Shown here: positions 1-27,104 of the stretch, piece by piece | How the letters are laid out: the number at the start of each line of letters is the position of its first letter | Numbering within the stretch: the first letter of the stretch is position 1 | NCBI GenBank assembly: GCA_963422735.1 | Contig: OY730476.1 | Span: forward strand, 1,920,001-1,984,000 | From: Candidatus Latescibacterota bacterium | Lineage (GTDB): Bacteria > Latescibacterota > UBA2968 > UBA8231 | Reading direction: 5' to 3' | DNA: 64,000 bases | Program-made: the position numbers and the translations under genes | The notes under the pieces: generated by a model | The model's database searches: none | The model's input: the letters and a program-made list of their open reading frames with translations, nothing else | What the model was told of the DNA's origin: nothing

Positions 1-603
1 ATTCCCTACCAAATGGACTTCGACTAGGCCGTCTATGCGACTGCCCCAAGTCAACGCCTCATCTGTCCGAATCAACAACCCCGTACCCGCATCGGTAGGA
101 TATGCCACGACGCCTTCACCCTGCACCGCAACCGAGTCGATCACGAGTGGCTGGTCGGCAATCTGAGCAAGCGATAGATGGCGCTCTAAAGGCAAGGTAG
201 TGAAGTCTATTTCTCCTAAGTCTATTTCGGCGGGAAAGGGCGGCACGGCCTGTACTTGGAGATTCAGAGCCCACAGGGAATCCGCGCCGGCGATTTTGAC
301 TGCGACTTGGCCCTTAAAGGAACCGGCGATATCCGCTGTATTTACATCGACCTTCAGATGATATCCTTCGCCGGCTTTCAGCACACCCTTGGGGAATTCG
401 ACTCCGGTGCAGCCGCAGCCCGTCCGCACGTTTTCTATCTCGATATCAGTGGCGGGTTTGAACGCAATGGAGTGTGTGCTGTTTTGGCCGCTATACACCG
501 AATCCAGTACCACCTCCGAGGGCAACTGAGCACCTATCGGGTAGGCGATCAACAAAAGCATGAGCAGGAACATAACCAACGCCTTTTGTTTCGGGTAAAG
601 CAC
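1..603 (-). CDS. DUF1573-like secreted protein (cassette C), 3'-truncated by the window edge
   Basis: Open frame from GTG 603 to base 1 (VLYPKQKALVMFLLMLLLIAYPIGAQ...GCGCT...EALTWGSRIDGLVEVHLVGN). Near-identical to 21173-22104 but lacks its frameshift. CGCT motif is typical of DUF1573. Confidence 0.75.
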   Translation of the reverse strand, partial: MLYPKQKALVMFLLMLLLIAYPIGAQLPSEVVLDSVYSGQNSTHSIAFKPATDIEIENVRTGCGCTGVEFPKGVLKAGEGYHLKVDVNTADIAGSFKGQVAVKIAGADSLWALNLQVQAVPPFPAEIDLGEIDFTTLPLERHLSLAQIADQPLVIDSVAVQGEGVVAYPTDAGTGLLIRTDEALTWGSRIDGLVEVHLVGN

Positions 604-608
604 CTTTA

Positions 609-2036
609 CTAACCAACAATAGACGAGCGCAGCCAGACCCAGTACGCGGCCAGGTAGGTGAACACCGCAAAGAAGCCCAGCAAAACCAAATCGACGACAG
701 CAGTGCTAGCTAACGCCGCTGCGGAGAGGTTTTCTGCAAACACCGGTATCTGCTCCAACTCTACCTTTTGCGTGGACAGTCCGTTCTCGACAAGCGGAAT
801 ATGCAGACTACGCCCGTCCGCTCGGTCCATCGCCAAGAGCGTCTCCTCAAAACGTTGGGCATAACTCCTGACTTGATCGATGAAATGCCGATAGCGCGGT
901 AGACCCGTACCCGCCATTGCCTCCATGGCGTATTGGTACGGCCCCATAGGAGAAAGCCGGACGATGTTCTGTGCTAAATTGACCTGTTGTATCCGTTGCC
1001 GCAGCAAGGCGTTTTCTATTTCTTGATGATGAGCACGCTCTGACCGCAATAGGCTTGAAAATTCTTTGAGAAATACGGGGTCGCGCAGATGACCTTTCGC
1101 CACCGCTTCCTTGCTTACTAATTCCGCGGCCTTTTGTCGAAGAGGACCGTATATGTTCACCTCCTGTATATCTTCATAGGATAGCTCGGCAATAGCCTTC
1201 CCCATCTGCGGCCACAGCAGGACCACGCTCACCCAGACGAAAAGCACCGTCGTCAGACTGCCCTGCCTACTCGAACTATGAGCCGATATCAGCAGCCCCA
1301 ACGCGGTACAGCCCGCCAGATAGACCACAGAGATCAAAACCATGATGGCGATACGCACCGCGTGAGCGACATTCAACGACAGGTCGGCGAGAACTAGGAC
1401 GATTAGCAGGTTCAGAGTGAGGCCGAGAAGTAGCACCCCGATCGAGACCATCATCGCGCCCCAGAACTTGCCCCACAGCAGCGTATGGCGCAGCAGGCTG
1501 TTGGCCATGACCAGCTTGAGGGTGCCGCTCTCCTTTTCGCCGACAATGGCGTCGTGGGTGAAAAGGAGGGCGGCCAAGCTCAGCAAGACGCCAACGATGA
1601 ATACCCAGTCAATGGTAATAAAGGTGGAGAGTAGCGGAACATCCTCTAACTCGTTAGGAAAAGATAGAATCCAAGGCCAGTAGAAACTGCAATCGAATCT
1701 AGCCCACATCCCGTGACGTCTCGCTACGGCATCTATGTTATCTGGTAGTTTATTGTCGGCGAAACCGGCGCAAAATGCCAATTCACTAGGTTGCTTATAG
1801 AGTAGCCCAAGGCCCTTGATTAGAAGCATCTGTAGGCTTGCCGCTCCATTAGTACGCAATGTTCGGTGTTGCTGGGTGACGTTTTCTATATAGGTATCTC
1901 GCTCTAGCTGATAAGTACTATGGACGAGGCCTAACGCGTTGAGCACCATCAAGCTAACGCACAATACCAGCGCCAGGCTGAACCGCAGGCTTTGGATATG
2001 CGCGACGAATTCCCGTTTGATAATAGTTATCAGCAT
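609..2036 (-). CDS. ABC-2 type permease (subunit type 2, cassette C)
   Basis: N-terminal 'IIKREF', 'HDAIVGEKESGTLKLVMANSLLRHTLLWGKF' EAA-like motif, multiple TM helices. Paralog of 22126-23592 and 16413-17852. Confidence 0.9.
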   Translation of the reverse strand: MLITIIKREFVAHIQSLRFSLALVLCVSLMVLNALGLVHSTYQLERDTYIENVTQQHRTLRTNGAASLQMLLIKGLGLLYKQPSELAFCAGFADNKLPDNIDAVARRHGMWARFDCSFYWPWILSFPNELEDVPLLSTFITIDWVFIVGVLLSLAALLFTHDAIVGEKESGTLKLVMANSLLRHTLLWGKFWGAMMVSIGVLLLGLTLNLLIVLVLADLSLNVAHAVRIAIMVLISVVYLAGCTALGLLISAHSSSRQGSLTTVLFVWVSVVLLWPQMGKAIAELSYEDIQEVNIYGPLRQKAAELVSKEAVAKGHLRDPVFLKEFSSLLRSERAHHQEIENALLRQRIQQVNLAQNIVRLSPMGPYQYAMEAMAGTGLPRYRHFIDQVRSYAQRFEETLLAMDRADGRSLHIPLVENGLSTQKVELEQIPVFAENLSAAALASTAVVDLVLLGFFAVFTYLAAYWVWLRSSIVG

Positions 2037-2061
2037 GGTCTATTCCCCTCACCTGTTCTCC

Positions 2062-3585
2062 TCACCGAGTAACGTCATAGCGAGAAAAGAGCCCTATTAC
2101 GGCCAGCCATATTAGACCCGCATAGAGGAATAGAGGCAGGATGCTTGGCACAATTCTATCCAGCCGACGAGAAAGGGGTTCACGACGTTCCTCAAAGGCT
2201 GGCAGCGTGCGGGAGTCGAGGGTGCCTTTGTTATCCATAGCTTTGCCATCCTCGCCGATTATTTGCATCCCTTGTCCACTAAAAAAATCCTTGCTCCCGA
2301 ATGCGTCGTGTGCCCTTAGATACTCCAAGAGTTGCTTGCGGTACTGGCGAGCTTGATCGATGAAATCGTAAAAAACACCTGCATCCGTACCGGCCAAGCC
2401 GCCGGTAACCTCTAGATAGGCCCCTGCCGGCGTTATTCTTTGTAACTGCTCGTTTAAACGAATGAGCGACCGGGGTCGGTCTTCCCAAAGAGGGCCGCAG
2501 GCATTCCAAGCCTTTTGGGCATACTGAAGGCGTAAATTCTCCCCGGTTCTCAGAAGGCTTAGGAAGTTGGCTAGAGGAGCGTCCTCCTTAATCGGTCCGA
2601 TCGCAAAATGTGGGTTATTCCCAGGGCCCCCTGTCCCATACATATTACTGATCAAGTGTAGTGGGGGGTAGTCATCGCCCATCTCTGCCGTACGTACCAA
2701 TCCATCAACCCGTTGTTGGTATTCGCGCCACAACTCGTCTTGCACAGCCTCGGCTGTCTGGGCATCCGCCTGCCGATGGAATTGCTGATTGATGAAAAAA
2801 ATAATGCTGCTCGGCAGGACAATCACCAAAAAGGCCCAAGTGAATAGACCGTATATCAGGCTCGTCGAAGTGTTGTGTGTGTAGCACGAGATGGCCATGC
2901 CAATCAGGTAGAATATGGCTATGTAAAATAGGGATATCGCCCAAATCCCAATGAGACCCATCCAATCGTCCCCCGTAAGCCGGATGTGCTCGGAAGCGAG
3001 AAGAAAGATCGAGACACCGAGAAAACCCAAGAAGATCGGTATGTTGAGGAGTGTAATACCACTGAGGAACTTGCCCGTCGCGATCTGTACTCGGGACACA
3101 TTCATCGTCAACACCAGTGATAAGGTCCCTTTTTCTTTTTCGCCGGAGATAGATTCACACGCAAGGAGAACGGCTAGCAACGATAGAAAGACTTGGATGA
3201 CATGAACGACATCAAACGAACCTATTATGGCGAGTAAGGAATTGCCAGTAGTCGATAGGGTATGCTTGTCGGTAGCGTAGGGTATCTCATATATCCCAAT
3301 AGGGACTACGGAGCTCTTTTGCTCGGTGACGCCCCGGTCAAAGACTTCCAGCGGACTCGGAGTACGGACGACCTTGGTCCGCAATACGGCATATCCATCT
3401 ATTTTGCGAAATTCGTCGGCGATTTCTGCGACGATTCGATCTTTCTCTGCCCGTGCTTTTTCATGACTCGCTATTCGCAGCAGCCCGAGGACCCATATAA
3501 GCGACACTATAATCAGGGTACAGTAGATAAAGCGTCGGCTGATTAGCTGCTCTAGCAGTTCTTTCCTCCAGATGGCTTTTATCAT
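2062..3585 (-). CDS. ABC-2 type permease (subunit type 1, cassette C)
   Basis: 'IWRKELLEQL', 'ESISGEKEKGTLSLVLTMNVSRVQIATGKF', TM helices. Paralog of 23600-25108 and 18934-20466. Confidence 0.9.
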   Translation of the reverse strand: MIKAIWRKELLEQLISRRFIYCTLIIVSLIWVLGLLRIASHEKARAEKDRIVAEIADEFRKIDGYAVLRTKVVRTPSPLEVFDRGVTEQKSSVVPIGIYEIPYATDKHTLSTTGNSLLAIIGSFDVVHVIQVFLSLLAVLLACESISGEKEKGTLSLVLTMNVSRVQIATGKFLSGITLLNIPIFLGFLGVSIFLLASEHIRLTGDDWMGLIGIWAISLFYIAIFYLIGMAISCYTHNTSTSLIYGLFTWAFLVIVLPSSIIFFINQQFHRQADAQTAEAVQDELWREYQQRVDGLVRTAEMGDDYPPLHLISNMYGTGGPGNNPHFAIGPIKEDAPLANFLSLLRTGENLRLQYAQKAWNACGPLWEDRPRSLIRLNEQLQRITPAGAYLEVTGGLAGTDAGVFYDFIDQARQYRKQLLEYLRAHDAFGSKDFFSGQGMQIIGEDGKAMDNKGTLDSRTLPAFEERREPLSRRLDRIVPSILPLFLYAGLIWLAVIGLFSRYDVTR

Positions 3586-26480: not shown

Positions 26481-26539
26481 AGAAAGTTTCTCTGCATGTT
26501 TCGTTCTTCGCAACGTTATAAAAGTGCTTCTACAATATA

Positions 26540-26568
26540 AAGACGTATGTCGGCAGCGAAAAGTTACA
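26540..26568 (-). promoter_or_regulatory. Putative ECF sigma promoter TGTAAC-N17-CGTCTT
   Basis: Minus strand TGTAACttttcgctgccgacataCGTCTT. Second copy of 4934-4962. Confidence 0.7.
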
Positions 26569-26636
26569 GGGAGGGCAAAAAAATTAAAAATGGGGTAGAT
26601 TGCAGAGCACGAAAGAAATTGAAGACATAGATCGAT

Positions 26637-27104
26637 TTACTCCAAAAAGATGCGCAATTGCCTCCGTCCGCGGTGGAGATATACTTTGACCGTATTAAGG
26701 GGCATCATTAGCTCCCGACAGATATCCTTATAAGACAGCCCCCCAACGTCCCGCAGAAGGACAAGAGTTCGGTAGGGATCCTCCAACCGATTCAAGGCCG
26801 CTTTTAGGTACTGGGGCAAGTCTGTCTCGATAGCTTGGGCGTTCTGCCGGATCCGTTCGGAATCTTGAACACTGACTACCAAGCGATAGCTTTTCCGTCG
26901 GCGCAAGGCGTCCAAACAGGCATTGCGTGTCACCTGACGTATCCAAGCCTCCACATCTTTGAGGACAATGGAGGAGCTATATTTCCACAGGCGGACCAGA
27001 ACGTCTTGGACGACATCCTCGGTATCCTCGCGGTTGGCCATATATTCGTAGGCTAATGTGTAAAGGCTTCGTTGGTCTATTGGGCCGAGATGGGTGTTTT
27101 CCAT
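26637..27104 (-). CDS. ECF sigma factor, copy 2
   Basis: Near-identical to 5173-5640 (one amino acid difference seen, SSP vs SSS). Confidence 0.9.
   Translation of the reverse strand: MENTHLGPIDQRSLYTLAYEYMANREDTEDVVQDVLVRLWKYSSSIVLKDVEAWIRQVTRNACLDALRRRKSYRLVVSVQDSERIRQNAQAIETDLPQYLKAALNRLEDPYRTLVLLRDVGGLSYKDICRELMMPLNTVKVYLHRGRRQLRIFLE

Follow-up and report, generated by a model that had tools for sequence, protein, structure and literature searches.

The window analysed here, a stretch of 64,000 nt, carries three cassettes on the minus strand (Table 1), and their gene content and coordinates are upheld as the first-pass annotation had described them. Each cassette brings together an Sec-type leader peptide ("pep"), two ABC-2 permeases ("perm1" and "perm2") and one or two members of a secreted protein family that we call YGGF. 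The arrangement is a general one in this genome: all seven permease pairs (7/7) are accompanied by one leader-bearing peptide gene and one or two YGGF genes, and four further cassettes form a 36-kb super-locus elsewhere, which adjoins a copy of the ATPase/TolC/NEW3 block. The analysis confirms the observation and shows its extent to be larger than first noted.

Table 1. Features of the locus, in window coordinates
Feature	Position	Strand	Evidence or remark
DUF1573 protein, cassette C	1-603	-	PF07610 1.8e-11; open at window edge
perm2-C, ABC-2 permease 2 with DUF3526	609-2036	-	PF12679 3.2e-25; PF12040 9.7e-08
perm1-C, ABC-2 permease 1 with DUF3526	2062-3585	-	PF12679 1.2e-21
pepC, cassette C peptide	3668-3868	-	leader HMM E 7.7e-11
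YGGF-C, secreted ~300-aa protein	3965-4876	-	signal peptide, REGGYGGF motif, family alignments
Promoter block 5' of YGGF-C, ECF type (GTAAC-N17-CGTC)	4935-5016	-	motif search
ECF sigma factor, cassette C	5173-5676	-	Sigma70_r2 and r4_2 domains
ABC ATPase, ABC-2/DrrA/NodI type	5905-6627	-	PF00005 1.5e-30
TolC-like outer-membrane protein	6652-8184	-	PF02321 OEP 2.4e-35, two stretches
NEW3-domain membrane protein	8043-9638	-	PF10633 7.6e-13; likely ATG start 9557
Sigma-54 promoter, exact consensus TGGCAC-N5-TTGC	9635-9649	-	5' of NEW3 gene
TPR protein, cytoplasmic	10191-11444	-	TPR_12 7.2e-43
Family-2 glycosyltransferase (GT2)	11526-12566	-	PF00535 2.4e-26
GT1 (macrolide-GT-like) fused to transglutaminase-like domain	12580-14966	-	EryCIII-like_C/UDPGT, Transglut_core (Pfam)
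DUF1573 remnant (C-terminal part), cassette B	15129-15356	-	79% aa identity to end of A copy
YGGF-B2	15390-16400	-	family alignment member
perm2-B	16413-17867	-	PF12679 3.2e-25; PF12040
YGGF-B1	18058-18876	-	family member used for structure model
perm1-B	18934-20466	-	PF12679 1e-27; PF12040 4.4e-08
pepB, long form, 6 Cys	20610-20897	-	leader HMM E 0.0019
Truncated N-terminal fragment of GT1 gene	20980-21156	-	repeat 14953-15082 vs 21011-21140, 87%
DUF1573 gene, cassette A, split	21173-22122	-	two overlapping ORFs
perm2-A	22126-23592	-	PF12679 4.9e-25; PF12040 3e-08
perm1-A	23600-25108	-	PF12679 1.5e-26
pepA, 4 Cys	25333-25536	-	leader HMM E 0.022
YGGF-A	25539-26513	-	61-65% aa identity to YGGF-C
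ECF-type promoter block 5' of YGGF-A	26541-26622	-	repeat and motif comparison
ECF sigma factor, cassette A	26637-27176	-	Pfam; likely start near 27104

The single ABC ATPase noted at the outset is indeed the only one in the window, and it sits with the TolC-like and NEW3 genes between 5905 and 9638. It is the sole close ATPase in the loci, with an identical copy at 383.6 kb; the whole 3,829-nt block has a second genomic copy at 383-387 kb that is 99.8% identical. The AT-richness ascribed to the cassettes also holds, with a GC content of 0.45-0.47 across the YGGF and peptide genes; the ATPase/TolC/NEW3 block has 0.60-0.68 and the right flank 0.56-0.61.

The intact DUF1573 gene of cassette C encodes 306 aa in the genome, with its full ORF visible in L015. 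In cassette B the remnant lies in a DNA repeat (15085-15363 vs 21129-21407, 85%), and a 13-nt gap, seen against copy C, splits the gene in cassette A, where the register shifts between repeats D13 and D2. Run X7 has a contig with 13 extra letters behind 21630, in this same cassette A gene. The GT1 fragment is a scar left by cassette duplication.

A leader HMM run against 141,726 small ORFs of the whole genome returned eight matches, all adjoining YGGF genes. The leaders begin with basic residues, continue into a hydrophobic core and close on A-x-A, and most peptides carry six Cys. That of pepC spans 26 aa and ends in AWA, ahead of a 40-aa core with six Cys that begins with CC; syntenic relatives occur in L024, L042, L034 and L058, and those of pepA in L042, L059 and L057. 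For pepB the best leader match begins at 20885, and L029 holds a full-length relative (E 1.6e-5). Of 29 type-1 cores, 25 keep the Cys spacing C-x3-C...C-x-C-x6/7-C; pairwise identity averages 0.72 over the leader and 0.35 over the core. In these respects the peptides resemble exported mini-proteins with disulfides. The cores of A and C had been called unrelated; the peptide regions of these two are 42-45% identical with gaps and therefore not alignable, but all three peptides share one leader family.

YGGF-C has no match in Pfam or NCBIfam, and none of the 272 homologues of YGGF-B1 is named. Of 30 other species in the genus, 24 have the family, which is new and, in these searches, confined to that one genus. 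In YGGF-B2 an N-terminal four-Cys stretch replaces the YGGF motif. The AF2 model of YGGF-B1 (pLDDT 86.3) has NTF2-like ligand-binding cones as its best structural matches, at Z 5-6.3, a range that the structure-search tool warns is common; an NTF2-like fold is modestly indicated.

In both permeases the conserved parts are the TM segments and an EKE-GTL cytoplasmic loop, and the variable blocks fall in two predicted periplasmic domains. Across species, a given peptide type goes together with particular YGGF and permease alleles, and the sets are inherited as units. Peptides like pepA adjoin A-like perm1 (78-88% vs 73%) and A-like YGGF (74-77% vs 57-60%), pepC-like peptides adjoin C-like YGGF in three of three cases, and all 23 type-1-leader peptides with a scored neighbouring perm1 adjoin a B-like one.

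Cassettes A and C are collinear, and had been noted to share gene order, sigma factor and promoter. Sigma factor DNA is 99-100% identical, the promoter blocks (4935-5016 vs 26541-26622) 95% and DUF1573 DNA 93-99%. The permeases range from 57 to 90% in 100-column windows, one gap-rich perm2 window at 26% excepted, with 73% aa identity for perm1 and 73% for perm2. Synonymous divergence is a mosaic (dS 0.017 for sigma, 0.135 for DUF1573, 0.55-0.82 for YGGF and the permeases), a pattern that fits flanks homogenised around an interior that was either exchanged or retained. A and C are old, purified paralogous sets flanked by recently homogenised DNA.

This bears on the view that the cassettes are "diversifying," which finds weak support. 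One 30-codon window reaches a dN/dS of 1.47, but the overall values (0.26-0.35) speak of purifying selection, and A and C each have 60-88% identical counterparts in other species. The low dN/dS, together with the family's presence across most of the genus, indicates that the genes are maintained. The suggestion that cognate sets are swapped is supported in part, by the modular sets, the predicted periplasmic location of the variable blocks, the cross-species co-variation and the mosaic dS. It is qualified by the sets in which no peptide is detectable.

The 44 related loci contain 35 unique leader peptides, 45 perm1, 40 perm2 and 100 YGGF genes. At least four sets with YGGF and permeases lack a detectable peptide (L036, L054, L055 and L056), which means that the transporter does not strictly need a peptide; in L036 and L054, YGGF directly follows the sigma-54 promoter and leader. 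The first-pass annotation had named YGGF homologues without neighbouring peptides or permeases as evidence against its reading, and some such genes exist: in 9 of the 44 loci a lone YGGF gene has no permease within 10 kb, and in the loci scanned its neighbours are redoxins, an M16 peptidase or a different small ABC-2 system.

The accessory genes at 10191-14966 are constant, recurrent members of the system and no bystanders. The TPR gene is found again in locus 1, related loci hold 12 non-redundant copies of it, and the GT2 gene, EpsD-like and MftF-like below the cut-offs, recurs in the arrays. The GT1-transglutaminase-like gene, which is MGT/OleD-like, is here in two overlapping frames (13899-14966 and 12580-13959) and in locus 1 a single ORF (836 and 840 aa).

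Two modes of regulation are apparent. The cassette C sigma factor scores 75 bits with TIGR02937 (cut-off 42.9), and the -10 core CAT-N-CGT is retained in all seven A/C-type upstream regions, the -35 AAC being lost in L034. The window has no other exact sigma-54 site, and the genome has 26 in all; such sites lie 145-190 nt upstream of the five type-1 peptide genes in this genome and upstream of 22 of 35 peptide genes in relatives. At the head of locus 1 and of L056 stand a dCache histidine kinase and an NtrC-type regulator.

Among 168 genomes of the phylum, 78 have the ATPase/permease/NEW3 backbone. Its partners in other genera are HEAT-repeat/CBM9 proteins, with no YGGF seen beside it, and ancestrally its substrate may have been something other than a peptide. 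The AF2 model of the NEW3 protein (pLDDT 83.6) runs from an N-terminal helix through an alpha-hairpin of 2 x ~38 residues and tandem beta-sandwiches to a C-terminal TM helix; the protein is a candidate adaptor joining the ABC complex and TolC.

We propose that the locus may be an array of cognate specificity sets plugging into one common trans-envelope ABC engine. A precursor with a Sec-type signal would, once cleaved, yield a periplasmic mini-protein of 29-53 residues, usually with six Cys and mostly acidic, which one or two periplasmic, putatively NTF2-like YGGF proteins would hold or present. The two paralogous ABC-2/DUF3526 subunits would form a heterodimer in which both large periplasmic domains are set-specific, and every set would use the same ATPase, bitopic NEW3 protein and TolC-like duct, the latter reached by the NEW3 alpha-hairpin. 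Powered by ATP hydrolysis, the periplasmic domains would pass the folded peptide into the duct, presumably from the periplasm to the outside, where rival bacteria or a host may be the target; the same transport would keep the peptide off the producer's own envelope. Expression would be conditional: most sets have a sigma-54 promoter before them, under the dCache sensor kinase and NtrC-type regulator, and the A/C-type sets an ECF-sigma promoter.

That such sets feed a shared ABC/adaptor/TolC engine, which would pump out disulfide-rich peptides delivered by Sec or else shield the producer from them, is in our judgement possible, at somewhat less than an even chance. In its favour are the linkage and stoichiometry of the genes, the mini-protein-like peptides, the periplasmic variable blocks, the inheritance of sets as units and the maintenance of the genes, as well as the engine parts, the confident YGGF model with its NTF2-like matches, the sigma-54 and ECF-type regulation and the precedents of known pumps. 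Counting against it, neither Pfam nor Foldseek linked the NEW3 protein to an adaptor family (the Foldseek matches being solely Ig-like tandem domains), a search for an HlyD-type adaptor found none, some sets lack a detectable peptide, YGGF genes can stand alone, the backbone of other genera comes with other partners, the NTF2-like match is modest, and the model leaves the recurrent cytoplasmic genes (GT1-transglutaminase-like, GT2 and TPR) without an explanation.

No described family or paper matched the system, in line with the initial impression of an architecture without a known counterpart. It looks like an undescribed means, found in one genus of uncultured bacteria, of exporting or resisting a varied peptide arsenal. 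A further point against the model is the net acidic charge of 19 of the 29 cores, which sets them apart from typical membrane-active bacteriocins. The transporter has parallels: ABC-2 pumps serve for export or immunity in peptide-toxin clusters (LanFEG, McbEF, SkfEF and PmtABCD), and MacAB-TolC clears the periplasm of STII, a disulfide-bonded enterotoxin that arrives there through Sec.

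The gene content proposed for the window by the first-pass annotation was borne out, with every gene described found at its place on the minus strand (see the table). We use the term "set" for a small Cys-rich peptide gene (pepA, pepB, or pepC in cassettes A, B, and C; the same suffixes mark other genes), the secreted protein of about 300 residues that we call YGGF after a motif, and a pair of ABC-2/DUF3526 permeases (perm1 and perm2). The "engine" is the group of ABC ATPase, TolC-like, and NEW3-domain protein genes that the sets share.

Location and content of the principal features (L numbers are loci fetched for comparison, with positions counted within each locus)
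Feature	Position	Strand	Content or remark
Cassette A	window, about 21.0-27.2 kb	minus	ECF sigma, YGGF, peptide, two ABC-2/DUF3526 permeases, DUF1573, in this order
Cassette B	window, 15.1-20.9 kb	minus	peptide, perm1, YGGF, perm2, YGGF, DUF1573 remnant
Cassette C	window edge to 5.7 kb	minus	gene order as in A
Genes between B and C		minus	GT1 + transglutaminase-like (one gene, two frames), GT2, TPR, NEW3, TolC-like, ABC ATPase
Engine block, window copy	window 5776-9603		
Engine block, second copy	genome 383447-387274		
Super-locus 1	genome 383.5-419.3 kb		second array; ends in the engine block
Exact sigma-54 site	window 9635-9649		upstream of the NEW3 gene; the only exact site in the window
CBM9-like/kinase/activator triad	L071:1834-6211 (genome 420.8-425.2 kb)		directly upstream of super-locus 1
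Conserved leader, promoter to type-1 peptide	L013:9734-9910		
Conserved leader, promoter to type-1 peptide	L014:223-413		
Conserved leader, promoter to type-1 peptide	L014:7919-8087		
Conserved leader, promoter to type-1 peptide	L014:18266-18431		
Conserved leader, promoter to type-1 peptide	L016:2943-3089		

Alignment of cassettes A and C bears out the earlier view that they have their gene order, sigma factor, and promoter block in common. At the DNA level the sigma genes are 99-100% identical, the 82-nt block in front of YGGF 95%, and the DUF1573 genes 93-99%; the permeases are 57-90% identical in 100-column windows (26% in one gap-rich perm2 window), the YGGF genes 50-89%, and the peptide genes, at 42-45% and rich in gaps, are not alignable. 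The synonymous divergence (dS) is 0.017 for sigma, 0.135 for DUF1573, 0.82 for YGGF, 0.58 for perm1, and 0.55 for perm2, and dN/dS lies at 0.26-0.35 overall (about 1,270 aligned codons). The interiors of A and C are therefore old and under purifying selection, and their ends have been homogenised recently; this mosaic is the pattern expected if conserved flanks let whole interiors be exchanged or retained. The word "diversifying," which had been applied to the system, finds weak support at best: dN/dS between A and C peaks at 1.47 over 30 codons of perm1, in its second predicted periplasmic domain, but the overall values carry no signature of rapid diversification. A joint in a contig of sequencing run X7 (20996>27004) would delete cassette A; its short side is only 27 letters long, and it is a weak hint at best of presence/absence variation. 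Contigs of run X11, which we guess to be RNA, cover 25361-27136 and a few other pieces of the window.

The cassettes had also looked AT-rich, and the GC profile agrees: it stands at 0.45-0.47 in YGGF and peptide genes versus 0.60-0.68 in engine genes and 0.56-0.61 to the right of cassette A. Elsewhere in the window, 39001-40000 has a marked local strand asymmetry (GC skew -0.295, AT skew 0.165).

The genome is a single 4.95-Mb contig with about 12 YGGF genes. The engine block of 3,829 nt occurs in it twice, in copies that are 99.8% identical and 1.54 Mb apart; the claim of a single ABC ATPase thus holds for the window but not for the genome. The cassettes adjoining the two copies share no DNA match of at least 200 nt, and near-identical blocks with unmatched neighbors suggest that the engine, by itself, was recently duplicated or underwent gene conversion. 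Upstream of the copy at 383 kb lie four further perm1/perm2/YGGF sets, interspersed with genes for GT2, an unbroken 836/840-aa GT1-transglutaminase-like fusion, TPR, and DUF1573.

The lantibiotic-protection ATPase is the third-best NCBIfam match of the engine ATPase (3e-44), and the 151 bits scored against TIGR03740 lie below the equivalog cut-off of 309.75. The TolC-like protein matches PF02321 (OEP, 2.4e-35) and scores 77.6 bits against TIGR01844 (cut-off 225). AF2 models the NEW3 protein (pLDDT 83.6) with a hydrophobic helix at the N-terminus, two helices of about 38 residues that form a hairpin, three or four beta-sandwich domains, and a C-terminal transmembrane helix; Foldseek matched it to Ig-like tandem domains only. 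Pfam found no HlyD/MFP-family adaptor in the loci, and even with E allowed to reach 10 it showed no such similarity for the NEW3 protein. Going by the modeled hairpin and the gene order, the NEW3 protein is a candidate for the link to TolC.

This backbone reaches beyond the genus. The NEW3 family is present in 78 of 168 genomes of the phylum, and in two other genera it accompanies an ATPase 74-75% identical to ours and a TolC-like gene. In one of these two genera (locus L069, genome G099), it also accompanies DUF3526 permeases that are interleaved with HEAT-repeat proteins, one of them with a CBM9-like domain, in place of YGGF, and TolC is present; in a third genome (L070, G026), the order ATPase, perm1, perm2, NEW3 follows a kinase and a sigma-54 regulator. 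YGGF was not seen in either locus, nor TolC in L070. In the phylum survey, the YGGF family turned up in 24 of the genus's 30 other species-level genomes versus 0 of 137 genomes of other genera. Since other genera have the backbone without YGGF, we regard the backbone as old and YGGF, presumably with the peptides, as having been added at the level of the genus.

Every locus-1 set contains a small ORF with the leader M-K-K-R-I-I-R-L-A-I-G-L-T-A-L-V-A-S-F-L-P-Q-K-A-E-A, behind which the cores are all different and hold 6 or 8 Cys. An HMM of this leader, run over all 141,726 genome ORFs of 35-130 codons, returned eight matches and no others: four lie in locus 1, a fifth adjoins a YGGF gene at 947 kb, and the remaining three are those of the window (E = 7.7e-11 for pepC, 0.0019 for pepB, and 0.022 for pepA). 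By these matches, all seven permease pairs of the genome come with one peptide gene, and the window peptides form one leader family. The earlier statement that the peptide cores are unrelated therefore stands for the genes of A and C, which do not align, but not for the precursors as a whole. All three have syntenic relatives in other species.

The 35 unique leader peptides of relatives give a fuller picture. Exactly six Cys are present in 28 of the 35. Among the 29 peptides with the main (type-1) leader and six or more Cys, 25 space them as C-x3-C-x(4-24)-C-x(4-11)-C-x-C-x(6-7)-C, an arrangement that may resemble that of knottins, in which six Cys joined I-IV, II-V, and III-VI form a knot. 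In these 29, mean pairwise identity is 0.72 in the leader versus 0.35 in the core; cores are 29-53 residues long and net acidic in 19 of 29. Cores of pepC type begin with CC and have six Cys, and pepA of the window has four. We judged Sec signals by a basic n-region, a hydrophobic h-region of 10-15 residues, and small residues at -3 and -1; by eye, all 29 type-1 leaders have these features (basic M-K-K-R, a 13-residue hydrophobic core, P-Q-K-A-E-A), as do the N-termini of YGGF. Cleavage would presumably follow A-x-A, with which the leaders end, and they hold no double-glycine or other known RiPP leader motif. No family in Pfam, NCBIfam, PDB, or Rfam covers the peptides or the leader, and the available portions of the published literature on DUF3526 permeases, Latescibacterota cysteine-rich peptides, and cystine-knot peptides with ABC transporters do not describe the system.

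YGGF is equally short of named relatives. Its 272 database homologues include none that is named and none with a Pfam domain, and its profile, searched against 1.84 billion representatives, returned just 59 matches, mostly fragments of the same family. There was no match in Pfam or NCBIfam, the best E in a PDB profile search was 0.83, and the best ESM Atlas value (0.89) was to unnamed clusters. The AlphaFold model of YGGF-B1 is confident (pLDDT 86.3, pTM 0.84); Foldseek found nothing for it in PDB at E <= 0.001, and VIA-align listed 35 chains at Z >= 5 and none at Z >= 8. The top matches are NTF2-like cones (Z 5-6.3, about 110-130 residues); the NTF2-like/SnoaL-like fold is defined as an alpha+beta cone with three helices on a curved sheet of 5-6 strands. 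We call the fold of YGGF NTF2-like tentatively because scores in this range are common. A complex prediction for mature YGGF-C with mature pepC scored 0.10 (mark 0.32), which bears neither for nor against an interaction. YGGF-B2 (15390-16400, minus) has a 4-Cys stretch after the signal peptide in place of the Y-G-G-F motif, and a similar N-terminus is seen in L026 near 18723-18989.

The six window permeases all match PF12679 (77.6-97.6 bits, cut-off 27.2), and four exceed 25 bits against PF12040, with the other two at 21-22.5; they belong with the ABC-2 families and not with FtsX, the fold of MacB. Hydropathy and conservation of seven perm1 and seven perm2 proteins predict the order TM1, a loop of about 100 residues, TM2, a conserved cytoplasmic E-K-E-x-G-T-L loop, TM3-5, a loop of about 240 residues (DUF3526), and TM6, and the six segments with a conserved cytoplasmic loop after TM2 again agree with ABC-2 topology. 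The least conserved blocks (mean pairwise identity 0.10-0.33) all fall within the two long loops, which this topology predicts to be periplasmic.

Outside this genome, 44 homologue loci come from MAGs labelled Candidatus Latescibacterota, with four labelled Gemmatimonadota or Gemmatimonadetes. Most are the same arrays, typically ending in perm2, NEW3, TolC, and ATPase. Non-redundant counts in these loci are 45 perm1, 40 perm2, 100 YGGF, 35 leader peptides, 13 NEW3, 13 TolC, 12 ATPase, 12 DUF1573, 12 TPR, 13 GT2, 9 GT1-TGase (the GT1-transglutaminase-like fusion), and 2 sigma genes. Identity to this genome is 70-98% for the engine and accessory genes; for YGGF and the permeases, compared with the B copies, it is 34-56%.

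The alleles of a set travel together. Next to pepA-like peptides in other species, perm1 is 78-88% identical to perm1-A and 73% to that of C, and YGGF is 74-77% identical to YGGF-A and 57-60% to that of C; next to pepC-like peptides, one degenerate copy included, YGGF is closer to C in 3 of 3 cases. In addition, all 23 peptides with a type-1 leader and a scored perm1 neighbor have a B-like perm1 (48-51% vs 37-40%). It is important to remember that shared descent of linked genes can give this co-variation, which thus speaks for inheritance as units and is not proof of co-evolution.

There are exceptions. In L036 and L054 a sigma-54 promoter and leader run directly into YGGF with no peptide between them, and L055 and L056 likewise yielded no peptide. 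Such sets were screened loosely for ORFs that combine a signal with at least four Cys, and the DNA upstream was read in three frames; neither approach turned up a peptide. The association of YGGF with permeases, on which the first-pass annotation depended, fails in nine of the 44 loci, which have no permease within 10 kb, and holds in the others. In the six of these nine loci that were scanned, the neighbors are thioredoxin-like redoxins, an M16 peptidase with an ECF sigma, a small GntR/ABC/ABC-2 operon, an AcrB-type pump, and an ATPase remnant. Redoxins lie beside a lone YGGF near position 10000 in L044, L047, L048, L050, and L052 (judged from gene sizes only in L047 and L048), and in L044 YGGF also adjoins the M16 (PreP-like) peptidase and the ECF sigma. 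A link of the family to thiol/disulfide or peptide handling is possible.

Two kinds of conditional promoter precede the sets. The sigma-54 element TGGCAC-N5-TTGC occurs exactly 26 times in the genome versus 11.6 expected from composition. Exact sites stand 145-190 nt upstream of all five type-1 peptide genes here; with an NtrC-type regulator adjoining locus 1, they mark these genes as sigma-54 operons. In relatives the site precedes 22 of the 35 unique peptides, and the 13 without it include all seven with a pepA- or pepC-type leader. The triad heading locus 1 encodes a CBM9-like secreted protein, a dCache/HAMP histidine kinase, and an NtrC-type sigma-54 activator, and a like triad heads the minimal locus L056. 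The conserved leader of 150-190 nt between this promoter and each type-1 peptide gene has a strong GGAGG site for ribosome binding and a short CTCGGAG/CTCCGAG hairpin, and most copies also contain a mini-ORF of five codons (M-K-H-I-V). This leader may be an attenuator-like control element. RNAalifold on 25 leaders gave a conserved 6-bp hairpin with almost no covariation, too little for us to call it a structured RNA; Rfam has no family in the window or in either locus-1 stretch.

YGGF genes of A/C type carry instead a conserved -35 AAC and -10 CGT element, typical of ECF sigma promoters. An exact regular expression for this promoter matched 0 of 6 relatives, but alignment shows the element conserved with small changes: the CAT-N-CGT core is present in all seven aligned A/C-type upstream regions, and AAC is lost in one (L034). 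The sigma factor itself is of ECF type by PF04542 and PF08281 (sigma70 regions 2 and 4) and by TIGR02937 (75.2 bits, cut-off 42.9), and no gene adjoining it was recognized as an anti-sigma. For cassette B, the window yielded no promoter.

We tentatively favor a mechanism to which we give somewhat less than an even chance: cognate sets would feed one shared ABC/NEW3/TolC engine. Sec would deliver a disulfide-rich peptide into the periplasm, the engine would move it out from there, and its removal would shield the producer as well. In favor of this proposal, each permease pair here is linked to one peptide gene, the variable parts are predicted to be periplasmic, and the loci encode a TolC-like duct and have conditional promoters; the known uses of ABC-2 pumps and of MacAB-TolC also speak for it. 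In a bolder form, which we consider rather doubtful, the whole would be a two-step machine for peptide secretion and self-recognition: a conotoxin-like library of disulfide-rich peptides, each with its own NTF2-like periplasmic chaperone and ABC-2 pair, would serve as exchangeable cartridges for one ATPase/hairpin-Ig adaptor/TolC engine and would form a combinatorial arsenal or identity code towards neighbors or a host.

Against the favored mechanism stand the sets without a peptide, the loci with a lone YGGF gene, the broken members of the arrays, and the recurrent GT1, GT2, transglutaminase-like, and TPR genes, which have no role in it. These recurrent genes are interleaved with sets in both super-loci and in relatives, and the glycosyltransferases among them would find a role if the engine exported a glycolipid or glycan made by GT1-TGase and GT2, with YGGF as ferry and the peptides as plug, primer, or regulator. 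We consider such glycoconjugate export unlikely, though several points speak for it. ABC-2 transporters commonly export glycans (Wzm/Wzt, TagGH), and MlaC is an NTF2-like lipid carrier; the locus opens with a gene for a CBM9-like secreted protein, and in another genus the backbone is again accompanied by CBM9-like domains. Other genera surveyed for YGGF have the backbone but not YGGF, and there are sets without peptides. However, a glycan cargo leaves unexplained why a leader-bearing Cys peptide stands at seven of seven permease pairs and co-varies with YGGF and permease alleles. The glycosyltransferases are also constant (70-88% between species) and the periplasmic parts vary, so that one glycan would face many different receivers, and MlaC is missing from the top 50 structural matches of YGGF.

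The same enzymes could act on the peptides themselves. The leader would then be a recognition sequence, GT2 or GT1 with TPR would glycosylate Cys, Ser, or Thr, the transglutaminase-like domain would trim, and the ABC-2 pump would export from the cytoplasm, as for glycocins or PSM. A leader far more conserved than the core is RiPP-precursor-like, GT1 is of the natural-product macrolide-GT class (MGT/OleD) and recurs beside peptides with GT2, the transglutaminase-like domain, and TPR, and GT2 is EpsD/MftF-like, with a match below cut-off; MftF glycosylates a peptide-derived cofactor. We nevertheless find a RiPP-like route quite improbable, as the leader looks in all respects like a Sec signal and shows none of the known RiPP leader motifs. 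Pfam scans of the loci contain no Peptidase_C39, radical-SAM, or lanthipeptide enzyme, and there is no glycocin GT among the 26 PDB sequence matches of GT2. With 9-13 glycosyltransferase genes for 35 peptides and about 40 permease pairs, many sets have no GT copy of their own. The window GT1-TGase gene is, moreover, split: its two parts are overlapping ORFs in different frames (12580-14966, minus), which could be a frameshifted copy or an assembly indel.

The DUF1573 proteins (21586-22122; 1-603) have a G-C-G-C-T motif and a likeness to the OS_HP2 (seleno)protein that is below cut-off (4.3e-09); a redox role towards the Cys-rich peptides is conceivable. Compared with copy C, DUF1573-A is split by a gap of 13 nt at 21586-21634 (minus); a run X7 contig has 13 extra letters behind 21630, so that the break may be confined to some strains.

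The regulators suggest a further reading, in which the peptides would be identity or quorum signals, and the permease domains and YGGF their receptors instead of their pump, feeding into the two-component system or the ECF sigma. Peptide sensing on behalf of a kinase is known from Bce-type ABC transporters; the sets here are polymorphic, they co-vary, and they are encoded with a dCache kinase and NtrC-type regulator or with an ECF sigma that has no visible anti-sigma. We hold signalling or kin recognition to be very unlikely: the sigma gene is in only 2 non-redundant related loci, a TolC duct and shared ATPase are costly for a pure sensor, and up to seven parallel sets with the same promoter type would signal to one regulator. 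Least probable is a family of duplicated, eroding paralogues with incidental small ORFs and no coherent function, for in spite of several broken members (DUF1573-A, the DUF1573 remnant of B, GT1 fragments, and the window GT1-TGase, with one split YGGF and one split TPR gene in locus 1), purifying selection, conserved promoters, syntenic relatives of the window peptides, and retention in most species of the genus all speak against decay. What probability these readings leave over belongs to something we have not thought of.

If the favored mechanism of periplasmic peptide export is true, diderm bacteria would have a new way of carrying folded, disulfide-bonded peptides out of the periplasm, and the system would be a new case of one ABC engine with interchangeable membrane specificity modules. 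Its compact 6-Cys scaffolds, of which 24 species already hold dozens of distinct cores, would serve as a natural library, and the system would offer a first functional handle on DUF3526 permeases, the phylum-wide ABC-2-associated NEW3 membrane proteins, and the new periplasmic family. Even with another cargo, the co-varying peptides, binders, and permease loops would be a clean system for studying how ABC exporter specificity evolves.

Several known systems invite comparison. LanFEG/LanI, McbEF, SkfEF, AlbCD, and PmtABCD are ABC-2 export or immunity pumps of peptide toxins. As in LanFEG, an ABC-2-type ATPase and two paralogous membrane subunits stand beside a secreted peptide and an extracytoplasmic partner, with peptide-linked expression under a two-component system or ECF sigma. 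The permeases here are, however, about 500 aa long with two large periplasmic domains (DUF3526), as opposed to about 250 aa in the LanFEG type; several pairs share one ATPase, a TolC-like duct and NEW3 belong to the locus, the organism is diderm (by its TolC-like outer-membrane protein), and the peptides have Sec signals. Unlike LanI, YGGF has no lipobox and no similarity to it, and no lanthipeptide precursor, LanB/C/M, or other RiPP enzyme is among the Pfam matches of 32 window and 10 locus-1 ORFs.

MacAB-TolC expels the Sec-delivered, disulfide-bonded heat-stable enterotoxin II from the periplasm, and the route proposed here would likewise lead through Sec to the periplasm, from where an ABC pump whose periplasmic domains are large would expel the peptide through a duct of the TolC family. 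MacB, however, is an FtsX-fold 4-TM homodimer working with the HlyD-family MacA, whereas the permeases here are ABC-2, 6-TM, and predicted to be heterodimeric, and the candidate adaptor is the hairpin and Ig-domain NEW3 protein, with no HlyD-family protein. Multiple dedicated specificity sets and an extra periplasmic partner are further differences. One ATPase module serving several alternative membrane specificity modules, encoded nearby or at a distance, is also known from the multitask ATPases MsiK/MsmX and from group II ECF transporters with exchangeable S components; those are sugar or vitamin importers, whereas here we find an ABC-2 exporter fold and a TolC duct, and a module consists of a permease pair together with its periplasmic protein and peptide.

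On the side of the peptides, conotoxin, cyclotide, knottin, and defensin families combine a conserved signal with a hypervariable mature peptide and a fixed Cys framework, and a conserved leader, variable cores, and a common Cys spacing are found here too. The present family differs in being bacterial, in that each peptide is encoded with its own transporter subunits, and in its mostly acidic cores; its likeness in framework is one of spacing. Glycocins (SunA/SunS/SunT) have a double-glycine leader, a SunS-type GT, and a C39-peptidase ABC exporter. They share with our loci a small Cys-containing peptide beside a family-2 glycosyltransferase and an ABC transporter, and differ from them in that the leader here is Sec-like and ends in A-x-A, there is no C39-peptidase exporter, and GT2 is not in every set.

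As a general analogy only, the cassettes recall the polymorphic toxin/immunity arrays, the subject of the review PMC3482391, in their tandem cognate modules, recombination between conserved flanks, orphan modules, gene fragments, and a GC content below that of the surroundings. There is here no large toxin scaffold with swappable C-terminal domains and no T5SS, T6SS, or T7SS delivery, and what might act as "immunity" is a transporter set of several genes.

A secreted peptide with an ABC-2 pump is, then, of a known general kind. What is new is the number of permease pairs on one ATPase, the periplasmic partner family, the hairpin/Ig NEW3 protein in place of an adaptor, and the family of six-Cys peptides with a conserved leader.
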